64,000 nucleotides of DNA from a virus, in the IMG/VR virus record IMGVR_UViG_3300043449_002204, positions 1 to 64,000 of that record. One strand, written 5' to 3'. This document shows positions 2 through 44,467 of this stretch, piece after piece (the first letter of the stretch is position 1; each line of letters opens with the position of its first letter). The notes beneath the pieces are model-generated. The model saw nothing but the letters and a program-made list of their open reading frames with translations, was not told where the DNA came from and searched no databases. The translations under genes were made by a program, and so were the position numbers.

Positions 2-3000
2 AATCACGTCAACACCAAGGCAACTCCAAGTCCTTTCCCATCAAGAACTCCAAGTAATACACCAACCTCAACTATAACTCCCACAATTACCTTAACACCA
101 ACAAATAGTGGATTGTCTACTCAAACTCCAACATCAACTCAAACACCTACCAATACTCCTACGTTAACTGAAACCCCTACTAACACTGTAACACCAACTG
201 TAACCACAACTGAAACTCCTACTAACACTGTTACACAAACTGTTACACCTACTAATACTATTACTTCCACTTCAACTGAAACACCTACCAATACACCTAC
301 TCAAACATCAACTAACACCCCTACTAATACTATAACCTCAACTCCAACTAATACTATAAGCGAAACTCCAACTAATACTCCAACTAATACAGTTACACCA
401 ACTGAAACTCCAACTAATACTGTCACACCAACTGAAACTGTTACATCTACTCCTACAACAACTCAAACTGCCACACCAACTGAAACTGTTACATCTACTC
501 CTACAACAACTCAAACTGCCGGTTCAACAAGTACTCCAACTAATACCCCAACTTCAACAATAACTGAAACACCAACAAGTACTCCAACTCAAACAAATAC
601 AATAACCCCAACTTCAACAATAACTGAAACACCAACTAATACAGTTACTCCTACCGAAACAAAAACACCTACTCCGACAAAAACACCAATAAGTTGTAAT
701 TGTATTGAATTTTTAGCGGCTTCAGGTCTTGCAATTATTAGTTATACAAAATGTGATGGTACTATTGTAACTAATTTACCAATTCCTTTAGGTCAAACAT
801 TTAAAGATTGTATTACTAATAATGAATATACTGTTTCATTTGGTACAGTTGTTACAAATTTTGGTTCTTGTATTGATAATTCATGTCCGACACCAACTCC
901 GACCCCAACTACAACTGAGACTCCTACACCAACACCAACTATAACTGAGACTCCTACTAATACGGTAACCCCAACAGAAACCGTTACATCTACCCCAACT
1001 ACAACTGAGACTCCTACTAATACGGTAACGATAACCCCAACTGCAACTATTACCCCAACTAAAACAGAATATAAACCATCAAGTAAATGGTTTAGTGGAT
1101 GTTGTCAACCAAATCAAATTATTAGAATATATGAAATTCCAGGAGAACTCGCTTCATTCATTATTGAAGGTGATGTTTATTATATTGAATCTTCCGGTTT
1201 TGTTGGTTGTGCTACAAATATAATAGAAACTGAGACCTCTTTAGAATATCTATTTGTCAATATAGAATCTAAGACTAACTGTGTAGATTGCACCACGGAA
1301 AACCCTTGTCCCACTCAGACCCCTACCGCAACACCAACCTCTACCCCAACTGAAACTCCAACTGAAACACCAACCGCAACACCAACAACAACTAACACCC
1401 CTACATTAACTGAAACACCAACAAGTACTGAAACTCCAACAAGTACTGAAACTCCAACAAGTACCTTAACTGTAACACCAACAAATACTGTAACCACTAC
1501 AGAAACCCCAACAAGTACTGTGACTGTAACTAGTACCCCAACAAATACTGTAACAACAACACCAACTCAAACCGTTACTCAAACTGTTACTATTACAGAA
1601 ACATCAACTAGTACTCCAACTCAAACAAGTACACTTACAAATACACCAACTTCAACTGAAACTAATACTCCTACGGTTACTTCAACTGAAACACCAACAC
1701 CGACTGCAACCCCAACTCCAACTAACACGCCAACTGTAACTTCAACATCGACTCAAACTCCAACTGTTACTCCAACTAATACAGTTACCGTAACTCCTTC
1801 GACTATATTCTGTGTTGATTGTGTTGAGTCAGGGTACACCTATGTTTTCCAATGCGCTCCAACTCCGTCAATAACAAAAACACCAAGTGTAACTCCAACG
1901 AATACTTATACTCCAACCATAACACCAACAAATACCTCAACAACTACTAATACTCCGACAAATACTAATACCTCAACAACAACTCAAACCCCTACTACAA
2001 CTAATACCCCAACAACCACAGTAACTCCAACAAATACATCAACAGTCACCATAACAAATACTGTGACTGAAACACCAACTAATACCGTAACACAAACCCC
2101 AACAAATACTGTTACTGAAACACCAACTAATACCGTAACACAAACACCAACTAATACAGTAACCTCAACAGTAACTGAAACACCAACTAATACAGTAACA
2201 CAAACACCAACTAATACAGAAACACCAACATCCACGCCAACACCAACTCCAACTATAACAGAATTTAAACCATCATTCAAACATTTTAGTGCTTGTTGTT
2301 CCCCTAACGAAGTATTCAGAGTTTTTGAGATACCCGGATTAACAGCAAACACTATCGTTGAAAATAATGTTTACTATATTGAGACTGGTGTGTTTAGTGG
2401 TTGTGCGGTAAATATATCCGAAACATTCACATCCAACAATTATATATTCTTAGGTATCACCGCTCAAACTAGTTGTAGCGGTTGTACATCATCAAATCCT
2501 TGCCCAACACCAACTCCAACCGTAACTCCAACCTCAACATCGACCCCAACACCAACTCAAACACCTACTAGTACTCCGACAAATACTAATACCCCTACAA
2601 ATACAATCACATCTACTCCTACAGTAACTGTAACACCAACTGAAACTGTAACACAAACTCCAACAAATACTATAACCCCAACTCAAACTTCAACTATAAC
2701 TGCAACATTAACTTCAACACCAACTAAAACTTCAGCACCGGCTTGTGACATTCTGATTAGTTTAGTTGATTGTGGTGGTACCGTTTTAGCGAGTGCAACT
2801 CCTCCAACAAGTATAATCAACTTAGACCGCGTAAATGATTCATCATATACCATTAATGGTACTATATTCCACAGTCCGTTTAATTTAAATGGTACTAGCC
2901 CTGGAAATATATATTTGGCGGTTTCTACCACTCAACCTGTATGGAGAAATAGTTCATCAATTAATGGCCCTCTAAACAGAAGTGCAATATGGTCATTAAC

Positions 3001-4306
3001 AGATTTTCCAACTGACACATGGTTAGGGTTTAGTGTTTGTATAACAGTTCCTGAAACTAAAACATATTGGGTTGGTTTAGGAGCCGATAACAATTTTAGA
3101 TTTGTTTTAGATGGTGTTGAGCAAGTAAACACAGTTGGTGGTCCTTATGATTATGCAACTTGTAGTTGCAATCTCGCATTCATATATTGGCATGTATACC
3201 CTATAACAATAACTGCGGGTAATCACATAGTTGATTTATATGGTTTAAATAATGGCAGTATTGCTGGTTTTGGTTGTGAAATTTATAATAATACTATAGA
3301 AGAATTAACGGGAGCTACCCAAGTTTCTGATTTAAATATTATTTTCTCATCTGGAGACCAATTAAGCGCTACCACAATACAGAATTTATCAGGTCAGTAC
3401 TTATCGAGTGGTTATACTTGTCCTGAAGGATATATTTTCGACCCATGTAATTTAGCTTGTTACATGGAATTACCTGAGTGTTCTCCTACACCAACACCAA
3501 CTAAAACTACAACACCTACAATTACACCAACTAATACTTTAACTCAAACTAATACTCAAACTCCTACAATTACTCAAACATCAACTAATACTAAAACACC
3601 TACAATAACACCTACTACAACTCAAACACTAACTAATACTAACACTCCAACACCTACCCCAACTAGATTAATTGGTGGTAGCGCCTTATTTGCACCTAAT
3701 GAAGGTGATTTCATGAGTGTAACTGGTAGTACATCATTTGCGGTTGGTACTGGTGATTTTACAGTTGAGTGGTTCCAATATCAAAATAACCAAGGTAACG
3801 AAAACTACCTATTTAGTTATGGTGCAGATACAAATAACTTCGCCGTTTCAGTTCAATCGGGTGGTAATAGATTAAGATTCTACATGGGAGGTGCGTTACT
3901 AGATAATCCAATAGTAGCAAATGATGCAAATACTTGGTATCATATTGCGATATCAAGAAATTCTGGAGTTTATAATGGATATTTCAATGGTACTAGAGTA
4001 TTAACAATTGCCGATTCTACAAATATAACAGATACAACATCTTTATTCTACATTGGATATGACGGTTCAGGAAATACTGGTAGAATATTCCCTGGTAACA
4101 TAACAAACTTCAGATTTATTAAGGGAACCGCACTTTATACAAATTCTACATTGACTATTCCAACAGAACCTTTAACAAGTGTTACAGGTACTGAATTGTT
4201 GTTATGTGTTTTCTCAGAAGATAGACTTACCGAAGATACAAGTGGAACAAATAAAATTATATCGAATAATGGTGCGACATACAGCACATTCACACCATTT
4301 ATATAA
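2..4306 (+). CDS. Giant Thr/Pro-rich modular virion/adhesin-like protein, 5' truncated. It has (T-x)n linkers, Cys-rich modules, a PA14/jelly-roll-like domain (~2740-3480) and a C-terminal ConA/LamG-like lectin domain (~3670-4303).
   Basis: The frame of ORF 113..4306 is open from base 2, so the TTG at 113 is unlikely to be the start. The C-terminus has the LamG-type motifs [25 protein letters not shown] and [15 protein letters not shown]. The middle domain has [12 protein letters not shown]...[12 protein letters not shown]. Confidence 0.85.
425..520 (+). repeat. Perfect 48-nt tandem duplication ([16 protein letters not shown] x2)
   Basis: acaccaactgaaactgttacatctactcctacaacaactcaaactgcc occurs twice in tandem. 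Confidence 0.9.
1793..1899 (+). repeat. Dispersed near-identical repeat, copy 1 ([31 protein letters not shown])
   Basis: Matches ~4633-4739 in the next gene at DNA and protein level. Confidence 0.9.
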
Positions 4307-4320: not shown

Positions 4321-7300
4321 ATGCAGACAGCACTAATAAACTCAGTTAATTTTACAGGACAGGTTGCAGTAATAACATTCTATCCTCAAACTGGTGGTAC
4401 TGTCAACATAGGTAGTCAAACAATTCCTTTTTATTATGCCGCTGATTACGTATGTGGTTTATATAATTTATATTTTCCATATTACAATACAACTTGTACT
4501 TATGAATTATTATGTCCAACCCCAACACCTACCGCGACAATCACCCAAACCCCAACAAATACTCAAACTCCAACCACAACATCCACTATTACTTTAACCC
4601 CAACAATAACTCCAACTAATACCTTAACACCAACTCCTTCAATTATATTTTGTGTTGATTGTGTCGAATCAGGTTATACGTATGTATTTGAGTGTGCTCC
4701 AACTCCTTCAATAACAAAAACACCAAGTGTAACTCCAACAATAACTTACACCCCAACTCAAACTTCTACAAATACCCCAACTATTACAAAAACTCCAACA
4801 TCAACACCTACCATAACTCAAACTCCAACTAATACAGTTACACAAACACCTACTAGAACAATTACTCCAACTCCTACCAAACTAATTAATGTACCAGAAT
4901 GTGCAGTAATATTTAATTCCGGACAAAATGTATATTTCTATGAAGTGGACACAAATACCACAACTCAATTAACTGTACCTGACGTTCCTTCATTTACAAC
5001 AAATGACATTGCACACACCACCACAAAATTATGGATGGCGGGTAGTAATAGTATTTATGAATGGAATATAACGTTAAGTCCATTTACTGCGGTATTTAAT
5101 ACGATAATTACAATACCAACTATATTTATTGGTCCTGGATTAGGGTCAATAAATAACACGACATTAATTGCGGTTGATGAAAGTATCAATCCGGCATCAG
5201 TAATAACTTTGGACGTATCTTCGTCGCCTGCAGTTATAACATATCAATTTGATATGTTACCAAATAGATATGTTTCAGGTGACATATTATTAACAACAAC
5301 AAATAAAGTTTTAATTACAAATTATAGTTACGTACCACCGTTTGAACAATATATAACACAATATAACTATTTAACAGGTGAACCTGAGGTTGACATTCAA
5401 ATTTCCCCAACTATAAGCGCCCCTTGGGGTATTTTTGAGGATAATAATGAAATTTACATTATGAACGGTAGTTCGTCAAATAATGTTTTTCATATTAACA
5501 GAAATTATCCATACACAATAACATTAACTGGTGATACTGGATATCCGGTATATGGTGCATCTCAAGTACCGAGTTGTTTAACAGTTGATTTTATACCTCA
5601 AATTACACCAACTCCAACTAATACACCTACTAGTACACCGACAAATACAATAACATCAACCCCTACTGTAACTTCAACAAAAACCCCAACCCCTACTAAA
5701 ACACCAGTTACATGTGAATGTTTTGTAATAGAAGCGGTTGGCGCAAATGCGGTGATTGAATATTTTAAATGTGGTAGTGGTGGTCAATTTGAAACAAAAT
5801 TAGTTGAACTAAACAGACCTTTTAGAGTTTGTTTAGAGAATAGTGGTGTTACGGCAACTGCCGGTATAATACAAGTATCTAATTTTGGTAACTGTGTTGA
5901 TGGTCAGTGCTCAAGTCCAACTCCAACTCCAACTGTTACTCAGACTCCAACTAACACTCAAACCCAAACTCAAACTCCTACTAATACTCAAACACAAACT
6001 ATAACCTCAACATTAACATTAACACCAACAACAACTGAAACCCCAACAAATACCACCACACCAACAACAACTGAAACCCCAACAAATACCACAACGGTTA
6101 CTCCTACCGCAACAACAACTATAACTGTAACTCCAACTAATACTGAAACTCAAACTCCAACAGCAACTGAAACTCCGACTCCAACTAATACACCTACCTT
6201 AACCGAAACTCCAACTAATACAGTTACACAAACACCTACTGAAACTCCAACTAACACACCTACAATAACCCCAACACCATTTTGTATTGACACATGTTCA
6301 ATTTTATATGTTGACGCGTCATCAATTATTTATGAGTATGATTATGTGACTGAAACCTCAATTCAGGTATTAGATACAAAACTTAGACTTGTCGACATAG
6401 CACATTCAAGTAGCAAACTTTTTGCAAATACTAGTAATATTATATACAGATACGATTTAACATTTTGTCCATTAACAATAACACCTATTGACTCAATAAA
6501 CAGAAGTTTCTTGGGGGACGGTTTATTCGCAATTGATGACGATACTTTAATAATAATTAACACTCAAAGCATTACTCAGCAAACGGTTCAACAATTAACC
6601 TACTCAACAAACACAATAACACCTAAATTTTCTTTACCCGAAACATTATCTATTAGGGGTGACTTTATCCTAACAACAACAAATAAGTTTATCATATCAA
6701 TGTTTAGTGGGATTAATAACTATATTTTACAATACGATTATACCACAGGTGAACAGGAAGTGTTTTTCCAAGTATCTCAACCTATATCAGGTTTCTTTGA
6801 GTATGGTAGTTCAATATACGCAGTTAATACCGCTGGTGTAATTTTTGAAGTTATTTTAGATTCTCCTTGGGGTTTATCTCCAACATCACTAGACCCATTT
6901 GTTTATTTAGGTATCGTAAAGGGTATTTCTCAAGTGCAGTCTTGTTTACCTATAAGCTTTTCAAAAGTAACCCCTACACCTACTTCAACCCCTACACCTA
7001 CTCCTACACCAACGACTACTGAAACACCAACTAATACTGTTACTCCTACAACTACTGAAAGTTCTACTCCAACACAAACACCTACCACAACTGAAACCCC
7101 AACAAATACTGTAACAACTACTGAAACCCCAACAAATACTGTAACAACTACTGAAACCCCAACAAATACTGCAACACCAACTCCAACACCAACCACAGAT
7201 TGTTTTTGTTATACGTTTGTAAATACCGACCCATCTGATAAACATAATGTTAGCGGTAAAGATTGTAACAATGTTAACTTCGCATATTCTTTACAACCCG

Positions 7301-10300
7301 CCGGCTCTGAAGGCGATACCGTAAGTTTATGTGCGTCTTCGAGTTTAGTTTTTGACCCAGAAGTTGCAATATTTAATAATGGTATTTGCGAAGGTTTCTG
7401 CGGTACTCCAACCCCTACACCTACTAGCACTGAAACACCTACCCCAACAATTACGGAAACTCCAACACAAACTCCAACTGAAACTCCTACTAGCACTGTA
7501 ACTCCAACTGAAACTCCTACTAGCACTGTAACTCCAACTGAAACTCCTACAAATACAGTGACAGTGACACCAACTAGTACAGTAACTATGACACCAACTG
7601 TAACTTCAACTCCTACACCAACAATAACAGAATATAAGCCAGCAATAAGAACATTTAGCGGATGTTGTTTCCCATACGAAATTTTTAAACTTTACGAAAT
7701 ACCAGGATTAACTGCAGATACAATTGTTGAAAATACTGTTTACTATGTTGAATCTCCCGTATTTAGTGGATGTGCTACTAATATCTCAGATACATTTACA
7801 CAAAATAATTACTTATTTAATGGTATAACTGCTCAAACTAGTTGTAGTGGTTGTACATCATCTGTTCCTTGTCCAAGTTCAACTCCGACACCTACCGTTA
7901 CATCAACTCCGACACCTACACCAACTGTAACTGAGACTCCAACAAATACTGTAACTCCAACTGTAACTGAGACTCCAACAAATACCACAACGGTTACTAC
8001 TACCGTAACACCAACAGAAACTCCGACATCAACTCAAACTCCAACCCAAACTCCAACTAATACAAGAACATTAACACCAACAAGAACGCCAATAATTTGT
8101 GTATGTTACTCGGTAACTAATTTATCCCCATTTTTTAGTAGTTATACAGGATTACTTTGTAATGGTTCGCCCGCAGGTGGTATACCTATTGGTCCAAATG
8201 CAACTATCACCAATTGTTATGCAAAAGATTCACTTATAGACCTTAGCGGTTCTGGTAATATAATATTTATCGAAAACGGAGAATGTGATGGTAGTATAGT
8301 TTGCCCAACTAGAACTCCGACCCCAACAAGAACTTCCACACCAACTCCAACTCCAACAAATACTGAAACTCCAACAGTAACTCCAACTCCAACAAATACT
8401 GAAACTCCAACAAATACCGTAACGACAACTGAAACACCTACAAATACTACAACACCCACAAATACTGAAACCCAAACTCCAACAATGACTCCAACTCCAA
8501 CAGAAACACTTTGTTGCACATCTTGGACATTATATGGTGATTATGGTAATTTAGTTGATTCGGGGTTTGTTTTTTCAAAACCTCCAATTGTTGCGGGGTC
8601 TACTTCAATAGTTATACCTCAAGGTACACTTTCCCCATCAACCAATTTGGTTGGAATGATATTACAACTAACAAGTGTGAATCCACCATTACCTGTTGAA
8701 TTTGTAACAATTCAAACATCAACATACAATTCACTTAATTTTACTTTTAATTTAACATTTACACCACCATTAAATAACACTTTAGGTGGTAGTGTTAATA
8801 GCGTATCATATGTAATTTACGAATCTCAAACTGAATTTTTAATTAATAATTGTGATGGTAGTAATTCAACAATTTATTTAGGTATAAACCAAACGTATGT
8901 TGCACTTTGTGCTTATAATGTTCAAGTAATTGGTGGTTTAGGATATTCTGAATCAGACCCAAGTTGTATATGTTTAACTCAAACTCCAACTAACACTCCT
9001 ACGCCAACTCAAACTCCAACTAATACTGTAACTTCAACACCTACACAAACACTACCAATATGTATTGAAGGTTGTAATCCAATATTTCGTAATAACCTTA
9101 ATGGTAACCTTTACTTATACAATATGTTAACGGATACCTCTACAATTTTACCAGGGTCTTCAACTACAGGTAGTATTGCAACAGGTAATCCTAATTTTTA
9201 CTGGACATTAAACGGACTAACAATAACTCAATATGACTTAACTTTATGTCCATTTACAGGAATAACACAAACGAATCAATTTGACATTAATGTCAATTTG
9301 AATGCAATGACATCAAGTGGAAATACCATATTAATCGGAGCAATTAACACAGTACCGGTATCAATCTACCAATATGATATTAGTGGTCCAACTCCGATAA
9401 CCACATTAATGTTTACATTACCTTTAGGTAATCCGCAATATTCGGTATCGTCAATTTATTTAACTAATACAGGTAAATTAATTGTCGCATTGGGTCAACA
9501 AAATTTTGCTTTAGGAGTTTTCACATATTCATTGATACAATTAAGTTACCCTGATGGTACTCCTGAACTAACAATAAGTTTACCTTCACTAAACTCATCA
9601 GGTCCTAATGGGATTACAAGTATATTCACATATAATAATCAAATTTACATAACTAGAGGTGTAACAGGTGAAATATATTCAATATCATTAAGTAGTCCTT
9701 ATAATTTAAATCTATACAACGATACCGGATTATCCGCATCCAATTTATTACAATCTATGGATTGTAGAAATGTTAATTTTATACCAGAAACCCCCACCCC
9801 AACTCCTACTAAAACAAGTACTCAGACTCCAACAAAAACTCCAACAAATAGTCCTACTAATACCGTAACTCAAACTAAAACTCCTACTAACACAAGAACT
9901 CAAACTCCTACTAATACCCCAACAACAACTGAAACTCCAACAAATACCCCAACAACAACTGAAACTCCAACTAGTACAGTGACAATAACACCTACCAGTA
10001 CATTAACTATAACACCAACTAAAACACCACCACCATGTTTTTCAAGTTGTGATGTGGTATTACTAGATAATGTTGGTAGGGTTTATTTTTATAATAACAT
10101 AACTAATACAATTTTCTTTACAGGTATAGACGCACCTGCCGGTTCCGACATTGCTCACACTAACAACAGAATTTGGATTAATAACGGAACTAATCTTTTC
10201 CAATACGATATAACACTATGTCCATTTAGTGTAATATCCGCAACGACTATCTCAGTTAGTCCAACGACATTAGGGGCTGGTTTATTCGCAATTAATGATA

Positions 10301-13300
10301 CAACATTAATCGCAAACACAGGTATTATCCCTACTAACTCAATTATTGAAATTGATGTTTCAGACCCACTATCCCCTGTAATAACCACCAAATTTCCTTT
10401 GATAAGTGGAAGAAGGGTTGCTGGTGATTATGTGTTAACTAATACAGGTAAATTAATTGTATCTAATTTTAATAGTAGTAATACTCAATACATAACCCAA
10501 TATAACTACATAACAAGTGTAACTCCTCCTATAGATAACAATATTGATATTGTTATATCACCAACTATAACAACACCTTATGGTTTATACCAATATGGTA
10601 GTGATTTTTATATTCTTAACTCTACCGGAACTCAATACATTATTGGTTTAACAGAACCTTACACATTAACTCAAGTGCAAACAATTCCTTTACCAAGCGG
10701 TGTAATAAATCCATCCTATTTTGGAGCTTCCCAATTATATGGTTGTATTACAGACTCTATTGTTGCGGTAACCCCGACTCCAACACAAACTCCAACTCAA
10801 ACCGCAACACCTACTCTTACATCAACACCGACAGTTACAATAACACCAACAACAACTGAAACACCAACCTCAACACAAACACCAACAAATACTGAAACTC
10901 CAACCTCAACACAAACACCAACAAATACTGAAACTACAACTAACACTCCAACAAATACTGAAACTCCAACTAACACTCCAACAAATACTGAAACTCCAAC
11001 TAACACTCCAACGGTAACTCCAACAAAAACTTATTATCCACCTTCAAGATTATGGTTTAGTGCATGTTGTAGCAATGAAATATTTGAAATATACAATATT
11101 CCTGGTATAATTGCAGCAGGAATAAATATAGGTGATACTTTATATGTAAATTCTGAATCAGGGACTCCTCAATATGTTGATAATGGTAATTATAGTATTA
11201 ATACCCCTACGGGTAGCATATTCTTAAATATAAGTGATTTTGTTGGTGCTGATAGTAGTTATTTTACTGTTGGTACAATACTGACCGGTCCTGGTAGTGG
11301 ATTAGTTACCACTGCAACTATTATTAGTTTTGATATTGAGACCGGAGTTATTACAACTAATGTTGGTTTAGATTATAGTAATTTAATACCAATACCTGTA
11401 ACTATTTTAATTAACGTATCAACTTATTACAGTAGTGGAATAGGATTTACAGGTTGTGCAACAGTAATAAATCAAACTGAAACAAATAACGTTTATCATT
11501 ATATAGTATTTGTACCACAAACAGATTGCCCAACTTGTTTTAATTCATATCCTTGTCCAAGTTCAACACCAACACCTACCGTAACATCAACTCCAACTGT
11601 GACACCTACACCAACACAAACTGAAACTCCAACTCAAACTCCCACATCAACCATTACTTCAACACCTACAATAACCTCAACACCTACAATAACCTCAACT
11701 AGTACACCAACCGTAACATCTACAGGTACATTAACACCAACCGTAACATCTACAGGTACATTAACACCAACCGTAACTCCGTCACCATTTACTTGTAATT
11801 GTTTTACATTCTTTAATACCTCGAATTCTCAAAATGGTACAGTAAATTATACCGGTTGTACCGGAATAGCCGGTGTTACAACAGTTGCTGCCGGTGATTA
11901 TACTCAATTATGTGTTAGAGCAAGTGCATATACGCTTTCCGCTCCAATAACAATAGTTTACCTAAATGGTGATTGTTCAACAGGAATTTGTCCTGAAATA
12001 ACTATTAATCCATGTTACCCATACATACTTCATGGTGTAAATAGACTTGTTTATACTTATGACCCAGTTACAAATACTCAAATACCTTTACCTATTAGTA
12101 TTTTATCCACAAATTTATTTGATATTGCAACTAACGATAATTATTTATGGATTTTTGGTGAATTCCAAATTGGGGGTATTGGTATCAAAGAATACACTAT
12201 AAGTACATCACCCTTTACCGCATCTCTAAATAGATTTATAACCACAACATCTCCTCTTTTCACCGCACAAGGTGTGTTAGCGGCAATTAATAATGGAACT
12301 CTATTATCAACAAGTGGTAACTCTAATAGTTTAGTTACATTAGATATCTCAAATCCGCTAACTACTTCAGTAACTCCTCAATTTTTATTTAACACCGCAC
12401 CTAATAGAGTGGTAAGAGGTGATTTAATTTATACTAATACAAATAAAATTATCGCGTCAACTTATACCGCCAGTACACCAGCTCAATCATTTATAACTCA
12501 ATATGATTTTAACGGTAATGTTGAATTAGAAATACAATTTGGTAATGTTTCTAACGGATTTAGTTACTACATATTTGGTTCTCAATTTTATTTAATTAGT
12601 AATTCAACAACTGTAAATTCTCAAAGATTTTTGAGGAATTTAACGGAGCCTTACGCTCAAACAAGTTTAAGTTCTTTAACAATTCCAATAATTGGTATAG
12701 CACAATCAGTAAATTGTTTAGATGAAAACTTTATACCTCCGTCGCCAACGCCTACAAAAACACCTACACCAACTCCGACACCAACAAGAACTTCAACTCA
12801 AACACCAACAAAAACTTCAACTCAAACATCTACACCAACAATTACTCAGACTCCAACAACTACTCAGACTCCAACAATTACCGTTACTAATACTCAAACT
12901 CCAACTAATACTCAGACCCCAACTAACACTGTCACAATAACATCAACATCAACTCAAACTCCAACAATTACAAGAACATCAACCCAAACTCCAACAATTA
13001 CAAGAACATCAACCCAAACTAACACACCAACTCAAACGCAAACCGCAACAGTTACCATAACTTTGACGACCACACCAACACCTACAAATACACCTAATTT
13101 ATTATCATGTACTTGTTATAATTTCTTTAACAACACAACCACAAATGGTTCAGTTCAATATTACGATTGTAATGGGATTTATAATAATATAACAATAACC
13201 GGAGCGTCTTATGCTCAACTTTGTGTATCAGGTAATCCAACCAATCCACAATACACCGCAACAACTCAAATTGGTATAATATATCAATTAGGAGATTGCA

Positions 13301-22027: not shown

Positions 22028-24997
22028 TTATACTGAAATATTGGACACACCACAATTTGTGCATCCACTTATTGTCAAATTGGTTAATATAAAGTCATCA
22101 ATTGCGTCTCCAACATAACACTTATCAATGCTATTTTTAGTTATAGTAGTACTAGTATTTAATGAAAGTGTGTCTCTATTAGTGTAACTAATCGATGACC
22201 ACGTTTCGGTTCTACCAGTCGTATATATTATTTTTTGTTGACAACCCGAATTTGTATTTAATGTAGTTCCTGTTTCAGACACTACAGTATTTGCACTGTA
22301 ATTAACAGAATTTTTCTTTAATAGTGTATTGTTATTAAATGTTGCAGCAGTTGTTGCCGGTGATGATTTAAAGTTACTAGTATGAATTAAATCAAATAAT
22401 ATTACAACCCCATCAGGTAAACTTGGTGTCACGTTTATTGTTGAAGTAAATTGTCTTGTTGTTACATTTTGTCCACTTCTAGGTGTGGTACTTGTTGTTT
22501 GAAGTGACACTTGGTAGATGGTTGGTCTTGCTGGTGCAATTAAAACTACTGATTGTGTATAAGTGCTTCCTGAAGAATCTTTTATTACCGTATTATACGT
22601 ACCAGGTCCTAACTTACTAAATAATGGTATACTTTTAAAAGTTAAACCCCCATCTATTGAATATTGATAAGGTGGGAATCCTCCCGAAGCCCTTAATGTA
22701 ATGTTCCCGTTATTAATAATTCCGTTATTTTCTGCGGTTGTAGTGGCACTTCTTGTTGATGAACCTGTTACATTAGAAACACAACTATCCCCTAAAATAT
22801 CCAAACAATTATTTGTTATGGTTCCACCTCCACTTGAACCTTGTAATGATTGACATGGTTCTTCGTAAACACCACCACTAACAGTTGTTCCAACCAGTCT
22901 ACAAATACATGCTCTTGAATTTATTCCAGTACCTCCCGGTACCGCAATTTGGGCCGGATTACCATCACAATCGGTATAAAACGCAGTACCAGGATAAGAT
23001 GATATTGTTCTCACCGCAATACATTCACATTGATTGGGTTCCGCCTCGATTCGTTCTGAATTATCCACAGGAGCATCTGTAAAGGGCACATTACCCGTTG
23101 AGGGATTATTAACAACAACTCCTCCAACTACCGGTTCACTTGTACAACAATTACCCAATAATTGTATAAAAGCAGTTCCCTCTGTTAAGGTAGGAGCGGT
23201 TTCGGAACATATTTCTAAAGAATTACCTCTGAAGTTTGTCCATCCGTAAGCCGCGGCTCTAATAGTTTCTAATAATCCAGTATCACAATTTATTATATTT
23301 AAAAACGTTAATGGTACCGTATCTTGGAAATTTGTTAAACTCCAATTAAAACATCCGCACCCAGCTGCGGGTCCTGAACTTGTTCCAGTATTAGTATTTC
23401 CACCCAAATTTGCATTTGCAGTTGTTGTAGGAGTACAATTACCGTTATATACAACTATATAATCACCAGGTTGTGAGCCAGGTTGTTGCCATCCTGAAAT
23501 AGGTGGAACTGCCGGATTTGTATTAATTACATTATAATAATAAGGATTAGTAGTAAAATTAACAGTCCATCTATTGTAAGTTGAATTCCAAGATAAAATA
23601 TATGACCCATTAGATGATTGCCATGATGGTTGACCATTTACCATTCCACTATAAAATAATGTTACAGTATTTTGTCTGACCTCATTACCTTCTTTACTTT
23701 GGGAATATGTTAGACATAAATTACCGTAAGAGGGGCATTCTCCCAAATTACCAGTAACATTACCATCCAAAATTTGTGTATTTGTAAATACCCAATCATC
23801 TATTGGTGGTATTGCAATATTGTAATTTTCAATTTTTCCTCCCACAACCGGTCCTCCAATTACCCACCCATTTGGTAAAATTGAAGTGCTCCAATTTATA
23901 TTGTAAGCACCTCCAACATATTGAGGCATACTATTAATAATAACTCCAGAATAAGTGAAATATTGTTGTATTGTTTGAGTTGGAGTACCAACTGACATAG
24001 TTAAACAAAATGATGGGTAATTTTCATCGGGAGTTGGTGTTATTGTCGGTGTAACAGTTGGTGTATTTGTTATTCTTGTTTCTGTAGGTATTGGAGTTGG
24101 AGCAGTTAATGTACATTGGGTATATGCCGTAAAATCACCATAAAAATCTACTACAGTAGAGCTATAAGTTCCAACCCCTAAGTTAGTTAAAAACATACCG
24201 TTGCCTCCCGTACTCCATGTTATTGAATATGGGGGTGTTCCTCCTGTAATTATCAAAGATAGAGTACCATCAGGAATTGTAGTTAAAGTAGGATTAGTAC
24301 CCGTACACTGTACTCCCATCGGGAATATCACGATTGGGTCACATTCATTTCTTTTTAAGATATTATCACCACATCTTGTATCTGAACTATAGTAAATGGT
24401 TGGTGTTGGAGTTGGAGTTACATAACATCCTTTAGTTGATGCAGTACATGATGTACAGTTTTGATAATTTTCATAGGTATATGGTATATCTTGATAGAGT
24501 ATGATACCACTAGGTAATCCTACTGAACTTACAACTGTAGTACAGGCAGAAACAGAACCAATACCAACATAATAAATTCCACCTAACTGAAAAATATTTG
24601 ATTCAGTTAAAATTCCAAAATAATCATCTTCGGGTCTATCTTGTTGTGGACAACAGTATTTAAAATATACATATTCTTGTTGTACAGGACATGGGTGAGC
24701 ATCTAAACATCCAGAAGTCGTAGGATAAATACCCGATATTGGGTTCAAACTAAAACTTGTGTACACCGGATATACCGGGGTCGTACCTGAGGATATAAAT
24801 TTAAAACATCCTGATATTTCTGATGGAGTTCCATTGCAGTTTGTAACACAATTTGTTATTTGAGTAAAATAAAAAGAATAACCTATAGAACTAGGTGCGA
24901 GACTTATGTTACCTTGAGCACCTGAAACTCCAATATAATTAGAATTAACACATTCTGCTGAAAAATTATAATATATTGTTGGTGTGGGTATTGCCAT
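22028..24997 (-). CDS. Cys-rich modular fibre/adhesin protein with two SprB-like repeats, a tandem duplicated domain and Cys modules shared with the giant + strand proteins
   Basis: SprB-like ITGGTPPYSITWSTG..LTNLGVGTY and ASGGFPPYQYSIDGG..LGPGTY. Duplicated CLT...YSG...W...PPIxxW...GxC. It also has CGC/CEC modules and short TP linkers. Confidence 0.75.
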   Translation of the reverse strand: MAIPTPTIYYNFSAECVNSNYIGVSGAQGNISLAPSSIGYSFYFTQITNCVTNCNGTPSEISGCFKFISSGTTPVYPVYTSFSLNPISGIYPTTSGCLDAHPCPVQQEYVYFKYCCPQQDRPEDDYFGILTESNIFQLGGIYYVGIGSVSACTTVVSSVGLPSGIILYQDIPYTYENYQNCTSCTASTKGCYVTPTPTPTIYYSSDTRCGDNILKRNECDPIVIFPMGVQCTGTNPTLTTIPDGTLSLIITGGTPPYSITWSTGGNGMFLTNLGVGTYSSTVVDFYGDFTAYTQCTLTAPTPIPTETRITNTPTVTPTITPTPDENYPSFCLTMSVGTPTQTIQQYFTYSGVIINSMPQYVGGAYNINWSTSILPNGWVIGGPVVGGKIENYNIAIPPIDDWVFTNTQILDGNVTGNLGECPSYGNLCLTYSQSKEGNEVRQNTVTLFYSGMVNGQPSWQSSNGSYILSWNSTYNRWTVNFTTNPYYYNVINTNPAVPPISGWQQPGSQPGDYIVVYNGNCTPTTTANANLGGNTNTGTSSGPAAGCGCFNWSLTNFQDTVPLTFLNIINCDTGLLETIRAAAYGWTNFRGNSLEICSETAPTLTEGTAFIQLLGNCCTSEPVVGGVVVNNPSTGNVPFTDAPVDNSERIEAEPNQCECIAVRTISSYPGTAFYTDCDGNPAQIAVPGGTGINSRACICRLVGTTVSGGVYEEPCQSLQGSSGGGTITNNCLDILGDSCVSNVTGSSTRSATTTAENNGIINNGNITLRASGGFPPYQYSIDGGLTFKSIPLFSKLGPGTYNTVIKDSSGSTYTQSVVLIAPARPTIYQVSLQTTSTTPRSGQNVTTRQFTSTINVTPSLPDGVVILFDLIHTSNFKSSPATTAATFNNNTLLKKNSVNYSANTVVSETGTTLNTNSGCQQKIIYTTGRTETWSSISYTNRDTLSLNTSTTITKNSIDKCYVGDAIDDFILTNLTISGCTNCGVSNISV

Positions 24998-25009
24998 TTT
25001 TTTATTTTA

Positions 25010-28000
25010 TTATATTTGATTTATACAACCCATGTTTAAATCCCCTCCTCCACCAACTGGTGTTGCAACATATATAATGATATCAACATACGTTGGTGAT
25101 GATAATGTTTTTGTGAATTGTAATTGGATATCAGTACTACATGCCTTAGCAGCTGGTGAAGGATAATTAGGTACAACACCTAATTGATTACCAACTGAAC
25201 CAAAAAGTCTTTGCGGGGTTAAAGGAGCCACATCGTTAGCGGTGAAGTTTAATTCTATCAATCCATTAGTAGTCCAGTTATTATTAGGGAACGCTGTTGT
25301 TGCATTTCCGGTTCCAGGTGTATAAATAAAACTATTCCACTGAGTAAATCCAATTATTTGATTAATTGATGCGTCTAAAGCCGCTTGTGTTTCATCACCA
25401 GTTAAGAATAATGAATCTGCAACTATATTATTGTTCCAAACTATTTGATATCTAGTGTTAATGCCTCCATTTATTGTTAATAATGCGTTACCAGTTCCAG
25501 AACCTAATTCTACTCTTTGTGTGAAATACCCTCCTACTTCAGGTGTAGAAATGTTTACATAATTAGTACTGTCATCAATTCCGCATGGTAAGTTTGGCAG
25601 TTCAAATACAGGTTCAAAACAAGTATTAACTTGATATAAACTTAAAACTATTGATGCACCTCCTATTGAGCCAAACGGAATAACACCAAACGGTGATGAT
25701 AAGGTAATCTGATAAATATTAGCCGAAGAATCAACCAAATATACTAAACCACTAAACACTTCGGGGTTGAAGAATAATCCTGATGGGGTACCAACAACAA
25801 CAGGAGTTAAATTAAAAATATAGAAGGTCGTATAATCAACCGAATTTACTAACTTTAAATAATATTCAACGAATGGGGCATTCAAAGTATTTTGAATTAA
25901 AACATACAATGTTCCGTTATTGTCATTAACAATACTTCCAATAACCTCATCAAATAAGCTCAAATAAGACTTATTTGTTATCACCGGTGTTAGTGTTGAA
26001 ATGTCAATTTCAACAAACCTATGTGGTGTTACTTCAGTATTTGTTGTTATAAGTACGTTACCTGTTTTGACTCCAATCGCGGCTCCGATTGCAAAATTTA
26101 AATTATAAACTCTATTAAATACTGCGGTAAATGGGTTCAAAGTTATACTCCATTCTCTAATTGTTGTTGACCCTGCCGATGTTGTATAACCCCACATTTT
26201 ATCATTAGTAAATGCAATACTTAAAGAATCAAAATTATAACCATCAACACTAAGTACCGTACTAGTATCGGATGAATAAACGTAATTATACATCTGCAGG
26301 GATGAATCTATGTAAATCATATCACAACTATTAAATGATGGTCCAGGTATAGGTTCAATCTTACAAACACAAGAAATATCATAAGATATTTTAAAATCAA
26401 CTCTAATTTCTGCGTTACTTAATGATAATGCTTGGTCATTACAACTACTCTGAACTGTTATACTATTTTCGGTTGGGTTAATTATAACATTACCAATAAC
26501 TGAAAATGATTCTAACATGGATTCTATGGTGTCAAACCAAAGATTATCCGAAGGGTAATTACCCAAACTATTTGTTGTATAAAATTCTTGTTCTACCTCA
26601 TTACCATCTACCGTAACTACTGCAGTAAATATAGCTTCATTTAAAATACAGTTAGTCTCACCTGATGTTAAATCATAAAAACCCTCCAAAAACATTTGTT
26701 GAGGTTTTTTAAGTATTGTTAAACCTTCTGAAATAAATTCAGATTGACAATAGTTATAAATCTCATATCCTCCCTTATTATTATATCCTAATAATGTTAT
26801 TTCTCTACCTAATTGACATCCGTTTGCATCAGTTACTAAAACGGTATAAGTTCCGGCAGATAAATTAGTTAAATTAGTACCTGTTTGGCCATTAACATTA
26901 CTACTCCACATAATTTCATAAGGAGCAGGCCCTTCAGTAATATAAAGTTGTATAGTACCATTATTAAAACCTGTTAAATTTGTTCCAACTAATGAAAAAT
27001 CAACACTGTCAGTCGCATTAACAGTCACCGTTTGTATTTGAGAACAAGATTGAGCATCTGTAACCGTAACTTGATAAATCCCTGCAAATAAATTATTAAA
27101 CGTAACAGCAGTTTGAGTTGTGTTACTAATCGTTGGTTGTCCTGTAACTTGGTATGTAACAGGGTATGTGGCCCCGCTAGAGATTCTTAATGAGATTGAC
27201 CCATTACTTCCTTGACAGGTTGTTCCTGTTGTTGAAGTGGTTAATGTATATTTTTCAATATTATTAATCGTATATGTATTTGTAAAAATACAAGGTCCAT
27301 TGGCTATTGTTAGGGTATAGGTACCGGCGGATAACCCTTGGAATTGATTTGAAAAACCGTTAACCGTCTGTTGTATTGAGTTACCTGAAGGGTATGTTAG
27401 AGTATAAACAAATGGGGGTGAACCGCCTAATAAAGTTATCGGACTTAAAGCCCCTGATGAATTATTACAGGTAGAATTTACAACACCAACATTAAGAATT
27501 GTAAAACCATTAGGAGGTGTTAAAGCCTGTGATACTGTTGCAGTACATAATGCCGCATCGGTTACTGTTATTATATAATTATTTGAAGATAGGCCAGTTA
27601 GTGTAAATGTTTCACTAAATGTAATAAGGCTTTGTCCATTACTTCCTTGGTAGTAGTATGGTGCGGTTCCTCCAGTAACCACTACCGTAATTTGTCCATC
27701 GGCACCAAAGCAACTTGGCGTTACAGTAATAACTTCCGCAAATCCAACCTGTGGTACAGTTCCAACTATAACATTTTTAGATACTTGACATCCTGTTGAA
27801 TCTATAACCGTAACTGAGTAAATTCCACTAGTTAATCCAGATATTGATGACTGCAAACTCCCTGTATTCCAAGAATAACTATACGGTGCATAACCTGTTA
27901 ATCCTGTTATAAATACCTTACCAGCTCCATTTGTACACGTAGAATCATCAACAACATAGAATCCATAATCAAATTGTGTTGAGGGTTTAATAATACAACT

Positions 28001-28507
28001 TTCAGACCTACCCGTACACCCTCCGCCATCATTTACCGTAACATAATACGTCCCCGCAGATAAGTTATTAAACACAAAATCATCCTGAGTTGACGAACCC
28101 GAATTTATTAATCCTCTTGTAGTTTCATATAAGAAAAAATCAGTACTCTGTAAATTATTATCAGTTCTAGCGGTTAACGAACCGTTCGCCAAACCACATG
28201 TTGTGTTTATATGACTAGGTAATGACACACAAACTCCATCAGATATGATAACATTAACAACACTCTGTAAAGGTGTGGCACAACTATCAAAAAGAATAAA
28301 TGTATATGTATTAGGTGTTAAATTTGTTCTTGTAAACGCAGTGACACCGGCACCCAACGCAACCGGAATTGGGTCGTCAAATGGTGATAAAAATTGATAA
28401 TAATATGGTGGGGTGGTTCCGCTAATATTAATAGTAAAAGCACCCAATCCACTATTGGTACAATCACCACTTATCGATAAACCATATCTTAAAGAACAAA
28501 CTGCCAT
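25010..28507 (-). CDS. SprB-repeat fibre/adhesin protein: about seven SprB-like repeats, a docking-like domain, one propeller-like repeat and a C-terminal beta domain
   Basis: Repeated TC/SC..xG.I...TGG..PY.Y.W....xxL.AG.Y.VTVTDxxxC units in the N-terminal ~570 aa. The segment ~25610-26330 matches the propeller repeats of the 4033-aa protein (IREWSITLNPFTAVFNR). Confidence 0.8.
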   Translation of the reverse strand: MAVCSLRYGLSISGDCTNSGLGAFTINISGTTPPYYYQFLSPFDDPIPVALGAGVTAFTRTNLTPNTYTFILFDSCATPLQSVVNVIISDGVCVSLPSHINTTCGLANGSLTARTDNNLQSTDFFLYETTRGLINSGSSTQDDFVFNNLSAGTYYVTVNDGGGCTGRSESCIIKPSTQFDYGFYVVDDSTCTNGAGKVFITGLTGYAPYSYSWNTGSLQSSISGLTSGIYSVTVIDSTGCQVSKNVIVGTVPQVGFAEVITVTPSCFGADGQITVVVTGGTAPYYYQGSNGQSLITFSETFTLTGLSSNNYIITVTDAALCTATVSQALTPPNGFTILNVGVVNSTCNNSSGALSPITLLGGSPPFVYTLTYPSGNSIQQTVNGFSNQFQGLSAGTYTLTIANGPCIFTNTYTINNIEKYTLTTSTTGTTCQGSNGSISLRISSGATYPVTYQVTGQPTISNTTQTAVTFNNLFAGIYQVTVTDAQSCSQIQTVTVNATDSVDFSLVGTNLTGFNNGTIQLYITEGPAPYEIMWSSNVNGQTGTNLTNLSAGTYTVLVTDANGCQLGREITLLGYNNKGGYEIYNYCQSEFISEGLTILKKPQQMFLEGFYDLTSGETNCILNEAIFTAVVTVDGNEVEQEFYTTNSLGNYPSDNLWFDTIESMLESFSVIGNVIINPTENSITVQSSCNDQALSLSNAEIRVDFKISYDISCVCKIEPIPGPSFNSCDMIYIDSSLQMYNYVYSSDTSTVLSVDGYNFDSLSIAFTNDKMWGYTTSAGSTTIREWSITLNPFTAVFNRVYNLNFAIGAAIGVKTGNVLITTNTEVTPHRFVEIDISTLTPVITNKSYLSLFDEVIGSIVNDNNGTLYVLIQNTLNAPFVEYYLKLVNSVDYTTFYIFNLTPVVVGTPSGLFFNPEVFSGLVYLVDSSANIYQITLSSPFGVIPFGSIGGASIVLSLYQVNTCFEPVFELPNLPCGIDDSTNYVNISTPEVGGYFTQRVELGSGTGNALLTINGGINTRYQIVWNNNIVADSLFLTGDETQAALDASINQIIGFTQWNSFIYTPGTGNATTAFPNNNWTTNGLIELNFTANDVAPLTPQRLFGSVGNQLGVVPNYPSPAAKACSTDIQLQFTKTLSSPTYVDIIIYVATPVGGGGDLNMGCINQI

Positions 28508-41478: not shown

Positions 41479-43317
41479 TCACGAAAAATTGACTGATTTA
41501 AAGTTCTTAACTCTAACTGTAATATCTTTACCAGGAAATCTAACCTGATATGTTTGATTTGGTTCGGCAAAAATTGTATCATCAATTAACTCAATTTCAC
41601 GAGTTTCAGCGTTAGAATATCTCTGTGAAGTTTGAGATGATGAATATTGACCACCGACCAAATTATAAAATGTAATATTTGCCAAGGTAATAACACCGTT
41701 TTCATTTTGTATTTGTCTACGTAACTCAGAGATATACACATTCTCACCCATTTGTCGGTTTAATGGACTGAAAAAATCTGTGACAATATTAATAACTTGC
41801 GAAATCAAAGCTCCTTGGTTTTGACTACTATCTAAAACAACTTCAATAACTGTAGATAAATCAATAACATTTGCTGACATTATTGATATATAGTCATTTA
41901 ACATTCTATAATTTGATAGATAATTTGCAACATTACTTTTCAATGTATTAGATACAACCTCTGTTAGTTTTCCTGTTTCATCGTAAGCCAACATTTGTAT
42001 CTTAATCTTATTATTTTCTTCCGTGATTGCAACTTTTGCCGGCGCTCCGAATTGTGATGGCATCGTTCTAATAATTGAATCGTAATCATTCACAGTTACC
42101 GCTCTATTTTGAGCGGCGAAATTAAATGACACCAGGTTTCTAACTTCTTCAGTTGTTGGTATGTTTGCCCCTCCAATTGCCGCAGTAACATTGTTACACT
42201 TTAGTGAATTAATAACACTAGTATTAATAGAAGATGAAGGTCCATTTACATAAAAGGATATCGTACCTATTTGTGTTATAACATTAACACCTACATTACT
42301 ACTTAAACCACCACCCACTCTGTATTGTACAAATAAAGTAGTGTTCGCTTTTAAAGTACTACCCAAAGCAAAGTTATTTGAATACTTATATAAATCTAAT
42401 TTATACCCGTTTCTCGCAAACTCTTTTAATTGTTCGTCGGCAGATTGACTACCTCCACCAAAAGTTATCTTCATATAACCTTCAGGTGTAAATTCAGTTA
42501 TAAACTTATTTGATGTTGTTATATATTTTCCTACTTTAATACCTGGCGAATCAGAGGTTTTAGTTGGGTCTTCAACAAATACCCTATCTTGTGCAAGTGC
42601 CTGAACTTCATACCATCTGTTATCTAATCCTAAAAATTCTTGGGTTGATGGTACATTTGCATATTGAGTACCGTCCTTTAATAAAACACTTGTAACACCT
42701 AGTACATTTTTTTCAGGTAAGAATAATTCAAAAAATGGTTTTACATCATTAGGAGTTATTACCCTTTTGAATACTTTTGTAACCCCGTTAACTACAGTCT
42801 CCCTCTTAACTATTGTGTAATTTATTAAGATATTATTTGAATCAAAATTAGGTATCACTAATCTATTTGGAGCACCTTCGGCATTAACTGCGGAAGAAAA
42901 ATCAATATCGTATACTGTCTCAAAAATTTGTCCTGCTCCGTTAACCTGAGAACCTCGTCTTAAAATACCACAATATCTTAAATCCTCCTTATCACCAAAC
43001 GCAGGAACTGTAATTGCCAAATCGACTAATGCTACCGAAGGTCTTTGACCTGGAACTTTTAATCCGTAAGTTCTCGCAATATTATATATTGATGACCTTT
43101 GTTGTGCATATTGTAATACTGTTTCTTGGATACTCCTATCAATGTTGAATTGTAGGTTATCAGTAACCGCGGCATTTAAATCTAATAACACCGAGAAAAC
43201 CGAAGCGTCATTAACATTGTCAATTAAATCAGGATAATACGTTCTTGTAAAATTTACTAGTTCAGCCCTTATCGCTTCAAAATCTCGGGTGGTATATGAT
43301 ATCTTTTTGTTTGCCAT
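41479..43317 (-). CDS. Baseplate wedge subunit (T4 gp6/baseplate J-like)
   Basis: N-terminal ISYTTRDFEAIRAELVNF, IYNIARTYG, YRVGGG and QNRAVTVNDY; directly follows a gp25-like gene. Confidence 0.85.
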   Translation of the reverse strand: MANKKISYTTRDFEAIRAELVNFTRTYYPDLIDNVNDASVFSVLLDLNAAVTDNLQFNIDRSIQETVLQYAQQRSSIYNIARTYGLKVPGQRPSVALVDLAITVPAFGDKEDLRYCGILRRGSQVNGAGQIFETVYDIDFSSAVNAEGAPNRLVIPNFDSNNILINYTIVKRETVVNGVTKVFKRVITPNDVKPFFELFLPEKNVLGVTSVLLKDGTQYANVPSTQEFLGLDNRWYEVQALAQDRVFVEDPTKTSDSPGIKVGKYITTSNKFITEFTPEGYMKITFGGGSQSADEQLKEFARNGYKLDLYKYSNNFALGSTLKANTTLFVQYRVGGGLSSNVGVNVITQIGTISFYVNGPSSSINTSVINSLKCNNVTAAIGGANIPTTEEVRNLVSFNFAAQNRAVTVNDYDSIIRTMPSQFGAPAKVAITEENNKIKIQMLAYDETGKLTEVVSNTLKSNVANYLSNYRMLNDYISIMSANVIDLSTVIEVVLDSSQNQGALISQVINIVTDFFSPLNRQMGENVYISELRRQIQNENGVITLANITFYNLVGGQYSSSQTSQRYSNAETREIELIDDTIFAEPNQTYQVRFPGKDITVRVKNFKSVNFS

Positions 43318-43794: not shown

Positions 43795-44418
43795 TTACTC
43801 TATCTCATTTATATTATAATAGTAGCAATCACCGTCCTCAGCGACCCACCTATCAGATAAAGTTTCAACCGAAGGTAAATCAGTATCCACTTTTATTTCT
43901 TTTGGTTCTATTGGAAACTTATTTGTTACCCAATTTGAGTCCTTCCAAAATATTCTATTATTTGGTTGACATAATAGATATCCATCATCAGCAATTAATA
44001 TATGACCACACTTATAATCTGATGGTTCGTCAGAATATGAATTTCTATACCAATCAACAGTCATTAAATATGTTGCCCAAATTTTTGACCCATCTCTTAA
44101 AACAACCTGACATCTTTTTTCATATAGATATTCATAAGTTGTAACTGCAACGTTTTCAGAAAAACAATCCCAAAGTTGTTTAAAATGAAAAGGTATATCA
44201 TTATCAGGTTCTTTGATGAATATTTCAGAAATAGGAACCCTTGACCTTAACATACCGTAATCGGTCATTATATGAAATGTCAAAATTTTACCGGCAATGG
44301 ATTGAATTGCAAAAGCGTACGCTTTATGAAATTTATTATCATCTTCAGGATTTTTTGTAAAATGTGAGACTCTAACCAAACACTTAAACAATTCAATGTT
44401 TTCATTATATACTGCCAT
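43795..44418 (-). CDS. Conserved-looking phage hypothetical protein (207 aa; start moved to MAVYNE at 44418)
   Basis: The longer call (44499) would overlap nrdA and run through its terminator. The ATG at 44418 follows a TATTTAT motif. Motifs include QLWDCFS and QPNNRIFW. Confidence 0.75.
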   Translation of the reverse strand: MAVYNENIELFKCLVRVSHFTKNPEDDNKFHKAYAFAIQSIAGKILTFHIMTDYGMLRSRVPISEIFIKEPDNDIPFHFKQLWDCFSENVAVTTYEYLYEKRCQVVLRDGSKIWATYLMTVDWYRNSYSDEPSDYKCGHILIADDGYLLCQPNNRIFWKDSNWVTNKFPIEPKEIKVDTDLPSVETLSDRWVAEDGDCYYYNINEIE

Positions 44419-44422
44419 ATTA

Positions 44423-44429
44423 ATAAATA
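44423..44429 (-). promoter_or_regulatory. TATTTAT motif, putative phage late promoter
   Basis: Between the nrdA terminator and the ATG at 44418. Confidence 0.5.
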
Positions 44430-44437
44430 TCTTAAAC

Positions 44438-44464: not shown

Positions 44465-44467
44465 ATT

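Follow-up and report, generated by a model that had tools for sequence, protein, structure and literature searches.

Predicted disulfide staples in the five-bladed propeller repeats of a giant, probably adhesive protein of a freshwater phage lineage

Results

Cysteine pattern of the repeats

The stretch of DNA analysed here (the window) comprises the first 64 kb of the 77.7-kb IMG/VR record IMGVR_UViG_3300043449_002204, for which CheckV gives a completeness of 26%. It contains a giant open reading frame (ORF; P0001) encoding a tail-fibre-like protein with eight copies of a repeat of about 240 amino acids (aa), here called R1 to R8, and a second ORF (P0002), on the other strand, which holds a ninth copy (R9). 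A six-frame scan with a hidden Markov model found exactly these nine copies in the whole record. We describe these repeats and their paired cysteines (Cys), which we propose form disulfide staples.

The nine copies were projected on a 245-position profile, in which four key Cys columns were defined: column 9, the N-terminal Cys; column 5, four residues upstream, where some repeats have an extra Cys; column 69, in an LxCP turn; and column 235, the C-terminal Cys of a Qxxx-Cys motif. Cys was present at all four columns in R2 (CIDTC/LTFCP), R3 (CIEGC/LTLCP) and R4 (CFSSC/ITLCP), and at columns 9 and 235 only in R1, R5, R6, R7 and R9, which have Ser or Asn at column 69. R8 lacked Cys at all four columns (LGVAAL ... 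QPQQV) and exhibited one unrelated Cys (DIACTTT). The probability that the same three of the nine repeats carry both extra Cys by chance is 1/84, a figure that ignores the relatedness of the repeats. Translation and alignment reproduced every Cys motif that had been read for the nine copies in the original prediction, made earlier on this DNA, which did not mention the DIACTTT Cys of R8.

The orthologous giant protein of a close relative (3791 aa) displayed the same Cys pattern. This orthologue (L095, G004:C1:30000-46000) has seven of the repeats (propellers, as described below), not eight, the equivalent of R3 being absent. In its last repeat (aa 3553-3790), which lacks the key Cys, profile columns 46 and 101 are Cys; in R8 this holds for column 46 only.

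Fold of the repeat

From an alignment of 44 sequences, AlphaFold2 (AF2) gave an all-beta model of R4 with 19 strands and one weak strand (mean predicted local distance difference test score, pLDDT, 94.3; predicted template modelling score, pTM, 0.91). The N-terminal tail with both of its Cys (model residues 1-10) had a pLDDT of 92. In an exhaustive VIA-align search with this model, five-bladed propellers came top (Z 12.8-14.5, 190-211 residues aligned). The best match was the C-terminal domain of YjiK (3qqz, Z 14.5); others were the SCAN nucleotidase (2h2n), a bacterial glutaminyl cyclase (3mbr), olfactomedins and, from Staphylococcus phage phi11, the receptor-binding protein (RBP; 5efv), the latter with Z 12.8 over 205 residues and 9% identity. 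Olfactomedin, the bacterial glutaminyl cyclase, YjiK and SCAN, as the best fold matches (Z 12-14.5), have unrelated functions and no detectable sequence similarity to the repeat. Foldseek returned propellers in general, the best match in BFVD was an uncharacterised protein of 'Virus NIOZ-UU157' (TM 0.78), and the ESM Atlas yielded unnamed or weak clusters only. By sequence, nothing was detectable in a profile search of the PDB (best E = 0.025, a designed protein), and no family for the propeller, or for the minidomains described below, was found in Pfam or NCBIfam. On the evidence of the model and its structural matches, the repeat is a five-bladed beta-propeller.

The consensus of the repeat contains a four-strand motif five times. 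Each copy begins with an inner strand of small residues (DIAH / GLxAI / GDxxLT / YGLF / GASQ), followed by a tight turn, two long strands with a tight turn between them, and a longer loop. In the fifth copy the strands are divided between the two ends of the domain: the inner one is the last strand (model residues 231-235), and the others are the first three (10-14, 18-23 and 28-35). Judging from the DSSP strand order and the motifs, closure would be of the '1+3 Velcro' type, with the last strand (GASQ) innermost in a blade completed by the three N-terminal strands. The first strand is preceded, at a distance of two residues, by one conserved Cys, and the last strand is followed, at five residues, by the other. 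By the same strand assignments and motifs, these two Cys (model residues 8 and 240) would sit in the closing blade at the position that an A-B hairpin turn takes in the other four blades, and the LxCP Cys (model residue 65) would belong to the following blade, in its C-D hairpin turn on that same face. Strand order and blade motifs, together with the covariation described below, suggest that the Cys partners are adjacent in space.

Domain family and covariation

A profile of the domain, searched against 1.84 billion cluster representatives, retrieved 577 proteins at E ≤ 1e-3, 216 of them at E ≤ 1e-30. The best 150 homologues (P0003-P0152) and the two window proteins provided 207 domain instances, 144 of which were full length (135 external and 9 own). 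Many of these 150 homologues also contained Pro/Thr linkers and the N-terminal module of the giant protein. A crude hydrophobicity check found a signal-peptide-like N-terminus in none of the 150, and nothing signal-peptide-like was observed at the N-termini of P0001 and P0002. The propeller family, with its 577 cluster representatives, seems to occur only in phage proteins that lack a signal peptide.

Both Cys of pair 9/235 were present in 121 of the 135 external full-length domains and neither in 13, while one domain had its N-terminal Cys at column 11; with the nine own copies included, about 130 of the 144 full-length domains carry both terminal Cys. The two columns were conserved as Cys at ~90%, in a family with a mean pairwise identity of 33%. 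Where the Cys were missing, columns 9 and 235 exhibited paired substitutes: S..Y (five times), T..K (three times), S/G..F and S..L. Covariation was calculated as mutual information with average product correction on a 192-domain alignment (28,680 column pairs), in which pair 9/235 ranked 2nd and pair 5/69 ranked 22nd. All six external domains with Cys69 also had Cys5, and one domain had Cys5 alone; three further 4-Cys domains were found in relatives. P0054 and P0056 (CFANC ... TLCPF) differed at both sites together from P0053 (NLATC ... TLSPF), to which they are 55-59% identical. Across the homologues, joint gain or loss of both Cys was found for pair 9/235 and for pair 5/69. The original prediction had allowed that the pattern might vanish in a larger homologue alignment; it persisted in the 135 external domains.

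Rarer candidate Cys pairs were observed in the family at columns 159/181-182, 109/127 and 148/197-198. For two groups of non-Cys columns, 43/228/137 and 132/150/162/174, covariation was as strong as for the Cys pairs; these positions may border the central channel.

The four Cys of R2-R4, which would cluster at one corner of the domain, could instead coordinate a metal tetrahedrally, for example as Zn(Cys)4, and form no disulfides. Such a site would fit a reducing cytoplasm, where Cys clusters usually serve metal sites. The ancestral and commonest state of the family is nevertheless two Cys, and the most conserved columns offer these no His, Asp or further Cys as partners, which precludes a metal site in that state; the extra Cys are gained and lost as a pair on top of that state, and the CxxxC spacing is not that of a classical zinc knuckle. 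We consider a metal site highly improbable.

Phylogenetic tests

The four Cys columns were masked before tree building, and changes were counted on a careful maximum-likelihood (ML) tree. Nine changes were needed at column 5, eight at column 69, and four each at columns 9 and 235. For pair 5/69, four independent contrasts lay on well-supported branches, with none in the opposite direction. The 4-Cys domains were no closer to one another (mean identity 31%) than to 2-Cys domains (30%), and their nearest neighbours were mostly not 4-Cys domains, being 2-Cys or Cys-less instead.

These data bear on whether the Cys co-occur through the shared ancestry of a few repeat subtypes, with no structural meaning. 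Most of the Cys-less domains do cluster together, and when the nine 4-Cys domains were forced into one clade the likelihood was 61.9 lnL worse, with p = 0.128 in the approximately unbiased (AU) test, so that a single origin was not rejected. Shared ancestry would not, however, readily account for the retention of both partners down to ~20-30% identity, for 4-Cys domains whose closest relatives are mostly of other types, for the coupled change between the 55-59% identical domains, for substitutes that are themselves paired, or for covariation ranks of 2 and 22 among 28,680 column pairs. As a general explanation it seems extremely improbable, and for pair 5/69 an ancestry-only origin is disfavoured by the sequence comparisons. 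For pair 9/235, the paired replacements and the covariation rank are a stronger argument than the tree counts.

Architecture of the giant protein and its neighbours

A simple composition scan revealed the giant protein as globular modules separated by Pro/Thr linkers, like beads on a string (Table 1). It comprises the eight repeats, six CxC minidomains of ~70 aa, three CC modules and two N-terminal pieces. No Pfam family was found for the 4033-aa protein at E ≤ 0.1; PHROG 15511, whose function is unassigned, matched it, chiefly in its linker and minidomain parts. When the six copies of the CxC minidomain were compared, the six Cys were the only invariant columns. The AF2 model of a minidomain together with R5 (pLDDT 92.5, pTM 0.91) contained a small six-stranded beta module, the minidomain, packed against the propeller. 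R5-R7 follow their CxC minidomains directly, with no intervening Pro/Thr linker, and minidomain plus R5 are predicted as one rigid two-domain unit. The two small pieces at the N-terminus have three Cys each, with a Pro/Thr linker between them, and might be partners of each other or join different chains.

Every large module but R8 has an even number of Cys, and odd counts occur in R8 and the two N-terminal pieces only. The 4033-aa chain has ~40 potential disulfides. Fibre-like peripheral proteins contained 2.0-3.8% Cys, versus 0-0.5% for the baseplate core. Four neighbouring ORFs are Cys-rich as well (up to 6.4%; Table 1); one of them combines Pro/Thr linkers like those of the giant protein with a Laminin_G_3 domain, and another has SprB repeats. 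Gp45 of phage phi11 as an analogue, and a location beside genes for baseplate and fibre-like proteins, make it probable that the beads serve a multivalent adhesin as modules that bind carbohydrates or surfaces. The SprB repeats in two proteins neighbouring the giant one are a hint, from sequence, of a Bacteroidota host.

Table 1. Repeats, Cys-rich modules and neighbouring genes in the 64-kb window
Feature	Position	Strand	Description
Giant ORF (P0001)	4321-16422	+	4033 aa; 81 Cys
N-terminal pieces	4321-4737	+	aa 1-139; Cys 45/59/65 and 111/114/125
R1	4873-5607	+	aa 185-429; 2-Cys type; Cys194, Cys419
R2	6271-6975	+	aa 651-885; 4-Cys type; Cys655, 659, 716, 875
R3	9043-9795	+	aa 1575-1825; 4-Cys type; Cys1581, 1585, 1643, 1815
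R4	10030-10776	+	aa 1904-2152; 4-Cys type; Cys1906, 1910, 1967, 2142; modelled
R5	11998-12747	+	aa 2560-2809; 2-Cys type; directly fused to CxC minidomain
R6	13318-14103	+	aa 3000-3261; 2-Cys type; CxC minidomain fusion
R7	14554-15303	+	aa 3412-3661; 2-Cys type; CxC minidomain fusion
R8	15652-16419	+	aa 3778-4033, C-terminal domain; terminal Cys replaced by Ala/Val; lone Cys3831
CxC-type 6-Cys minidomains (n = 6)	5692-5931, 7189-7416, 8086-8319, 11782-12006, 13096-13326, 14338-14559	+	
CC-type 6-Cys modules (n = 3)	7618-7884, 8500-8988, 11029-11568	+	
CxC minidomain plus R5	11782-12747	+	predicted rigid two-domain unit (pTM 0.91)
P0002, ORF holding the ninth copy	25010-28507	-	1165 aa; SprB repeats too
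R9, ninth copy	25610-26347	-	P0002 aa 721-966; 2-Cys type
Cys-rich ORF	2-4306	+	32 Cys; Pro/Thr linkers, Laminin_G_3
Cys-rich ORF	16460-16789	+	7 Cys
Cys-rich ORF	19596-22001	-	22 Cys
Cys-rich ORF	22028-24997	-	38 Cys; SprB repeats
Baseplate wedge protein	41479-43317	-	
ORF with PHROG 3704 match	43795-44499	-	234 aa

Source record and phage lineage

Among the genes of the window we recognised a DnaB-like helicase, a UvsX-like recombinase, a single-stranded DNA-binding protein (SSB), a RuvC-like resolvase, a class I ribonucleotide reductase and T4-type baseplate wedge subunits. Because of this gene set (baseplate wedge, ribonucleotide reductase, and replication and recombination genes), the record was assigned to a large myophage (a jumbo phage), as a fragment of a genome of perhaps ~300 kb. 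Its DNA originates from freshwater metagenomes. At least 592 IMG/VR contigs encode relatives of the baseplate wedge protein, of which the best 80 (L001-L080) share 81-94% identity. By tblastn, the matches of this protein in cultured phages (Flavobacterium phages and a Microcystis phage) were all below 30% identity, as was that in a 484-kb uncultured phage. No match among 50,697 phage records was obtained with 20 kb of the window (megablast) or with repeat R4 (tblastn). The lineage is abundant, uncultured and apparently freshwater, without a close cultured relative.

Redox genes

The 77.7-kb record had no match to Erv1/Alr (PF04777), thioredoxin or glutaredoxin, and five related records (21-73% complete) had none to Erv1/Alr or DsbA (PF01323). 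Because all of these records are fragments, the absence of oxidase genes is provisional. Two of the five related records, one of them that of the closest relative, which also encodes the 3791-aa orthologue, contain adjacent genes for a thioredoxin (WCGPC) and a glutaredoxin (CPFC/CPYC). These loci are L081 (G004:C1:6008-6500) and L082/L083 (G001:C1:138271-138748); in the nearest relative they lie ~25 kb past the giant gene, in DNA beyond the present contig. T4-like phages carry reductants of the thioredoxin/glutaredoxin type together with ribonucleotide reductase. By their active-site motifs, the thioredoxin and glutaredoxin of the relatives are classical reductants and not an oxidative folding system. 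The suggestion in the original prediction that the phage might encode a redox pathway of its own was therefore not borne out in this fragment and the five relatives, where neither Erv1/Alr nor DsbA was found and the redox proteins present are reductants.

One further ORF (43795-44499), with baseplate genes on one side and those of ribonucleotide reductase on the other, drew attention as a possible redox gene through its match to PHROG 3704 'ferredoxin' (E 8e-36). It was rejected, as it exhibited no Fe-S or CxxC motif and no match in Pfam, NCBIfam or the PDB; the label looks unreliable for this ORF.

Alternatively, infected cells could themselves contain a dedicated pathway for making the disulfides, either a phage oxidase of an unknown family, encoded in the unsequenced three quarters of the genome, or a collapse or rewiring of thiol reduction in the host, driven by the phage and possibly with its thioredoxin as the oxidant. 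The load would be extreme, with ~40 potential disulfides in one chain and four Cys-rich neighbours besides, and the gene search covered 26% of this phage's own genome and at most 73% of a relative's. Erv1/Alr and DsbA were nonetheless absent from the six records, the thioredoxin and glutaredoxin active sites are canonically reducing, and Cys-less variants fold without the bonds. Such a pathway seems very unlikely.

The paired Cys might also touch and yet stay reduced, serving at the Velcro seam as partners in packing or hydrogen bonding that can be exchanged for Ser/Tyr or Thr/Lys. This would agree with the 13 domains that use non-covalent substitutes, with the unpaired Cys seen in many domains, and with a protein that is made in the cytoplasm of cells infected by phages whose relatives encode reductants. 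It agrees less well with two Cys that are ~90% conserved at 33% mean identity, with an even Cys count in nearly every module, or with minidomains that keep nothing but their six Cys invariant, three features typical of extracellular modules stabilised by disulfides; moreover, in oxic water two neighbouring thiols of a protein exposed on the virion would become oxidised in any case. We regard a permanently reduced pair as unlikely.

Discussion

Our results are best explained, with fair but not high probability, if the repeats are five-bladed propeller beads in which paired Cys form disulfide staples, one of them ring-closing, that are oxidised after lysis without a phage oxidase. The original prediction of two structural disulfides, one closing the ring, gained support from the fold, the strand order at the seam of the closing blade, the covariation and the paired replacements; independent origins of the 4-Cys type, in contrast, could not be established, as a single origin was not rejected. 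The ring-closing disulfide between the N- and C-terminal Cys is well supported, if indirectly, by sequences and models. The Cys pattern, its covariation across the family, the fold and the lack of oxidase genes in the DNA covered are established here; that the partners are close in space, that they are oxidised and when the bonds form is what we infer from these data.

Several observations weigh against this interpretation. Pair 9/235 showed one independent contrast on well-supported branches (four overall, none opposite), the counts of independent events on the careful ML tree reached 0.05 in no sign test, and the constraint of the nine 4-Cys domains to one clade was tolerated by the AU test. 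Odd numbers of Cys were found in 54 of the 144 full-length domains, with a lone Cys at column 91 in 28, and the family therefore tolerates free thiols. Finally, with a record that is 26% complete and a best relative at 73%, an oxidase gene may lie beyond the DNA covered or may represent a family not yet recognised.

If the disulfide interpretation is right, the bond between the terminal Cys would stand in for the absent peptide link and close the ring covalently. In repeats of the R2-R4 type, the extra upstream Cys would pair with the LxCP Cys in the C-D turn of the next blade, and this second staple would fix the N-terminal tail, together with the linker that leads into it, on the same propeller face. 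The beads would be made and folded in the cytoplasm, without a signal peptide; since natural Cys-less variants exist, the fold is independent of the bonds. These would then form by spontaneous oxidation once virions are released into oxic fresh water, hardening the exposed beads with no phage-encoded oxidase involved. Oxidation after lysis in oxic fresh water is, in our opinion, the likeliest route.

The original prediction treated disulfides in a cytoplasmically made phage protein as a paradox. They are less unusual than that: in the cyanophage Pam3, disulfides of the virion baseplate and fibres are documented by cryo-electron microscopy, mass spectrometry (MS) and the loss of fibres induced by dithiothreitol (DTT) (PMC9942802), and a 2026 paper reports disulfides in gp39, the tail tube protein of a siphovirus, and cites the Q-beta capsid and Agrobacterium phage Milano (PMC13576161). 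Like the repeats described here, these are structural proteins made in the cytoplasm, and they have been shown, by cryo-electron microscopy, MS and sensitivity to DTT or TCEP, to bear disulfides in the released virion. Those bonds are mostly cross-links between subunits of baseplate, sheath, tube or capsid, whereas the staples predicted here from sequence and models would lie within domains and number ~40 per chain.

Two other systems resemble the repeat in part. In the hemopexin propeller, one disulfide tethers the terminal blades (PMC3045013), and the hemopexin-like domain of matrix metalloproteinases (MMPs), hemopexin and vitronectin is likewise a small propeller closed on the principle of a terminal-blade disulfide. 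It has four blades instead of five, however, and it is eukaryotic, secreted, oxidised in the endoplasmic reticulum and unrelated in sequence; the bond predicted here lies at the A-B turn of a 1+3 Velcro blade and is accompanied by an optional second staple. Because there is no Pfam match and the model has five blades, the repeat is an analogue and not a member of the hemopexin family PF00045. The second system is Gp45 (5efv), the receptor-binding protein of phage phi11, which has a five-bladed propeller 'platform' (PMC4901313). Here too a five-bladed propeller belongs to a phage host-recognition device, but with one propeller per chain in a trimeric RBP, in contrast to eight beads on Pro/Thr linkers.

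Poxviruses and other nucleocytoplasmic large DNA viruses solve the same problem with an Erv1/Alr pathway of the E10R type, of which no homologue was found in the fragment or its five relatives; mimivirus R596 is reportedly an Erv1/Alr-type example for disulfides in virions assembled in the cytoplasm. The periplasmic Dsb pathway does not fit either, as PF01323 was absent from the five relatives and a crude hydrophobicity check showed no signal peptide in P0001, P0002 or the 150 homologues.

Disulfides in phage virions, disulfide-closed propellers and five-bladed propellers in phage RBPs were already known. What is new is their combination in an unnamed, populous and phage-restricted family of five-bladed propellers, with a predicted disulfide at the Velcro seam, an optional second staple, eight beads in one protein and ~40 potential disulfides. 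There is no evidence for a new redox mechanism or system. In practical terms, expression of the beads calls for oxidising conditions or strains, and stability or adsorption is predicted to be sensitive to DTT.

It is also conceivable, though distinctly unlikely, that the lineage needs mass oxidative maturation, with ~40 disulfides per adhesin chain and more in the four Cys-rich neighbours, achieved by an undiscovered cytoplasmic oxidase, encoded in unsequenced DNA of the genome, or by a redox switch that arms the adhesins only after release. If this were true, the phage would be a natural model for the way in which virions built in the cytoplasm gain disulfide-rich modules of the extracellular type. 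Under the interpretation that we prefer, post-lysis oxidation of paired Cys, the exposed adhesin modules of one phage lineage would be built like extracellular disulfide-rich proteins even though they are made in the cytoplasm, and, with ~40 disulfides per chain, they would provide a heavy-load test case for when and how the disulfides of phage virions arise.

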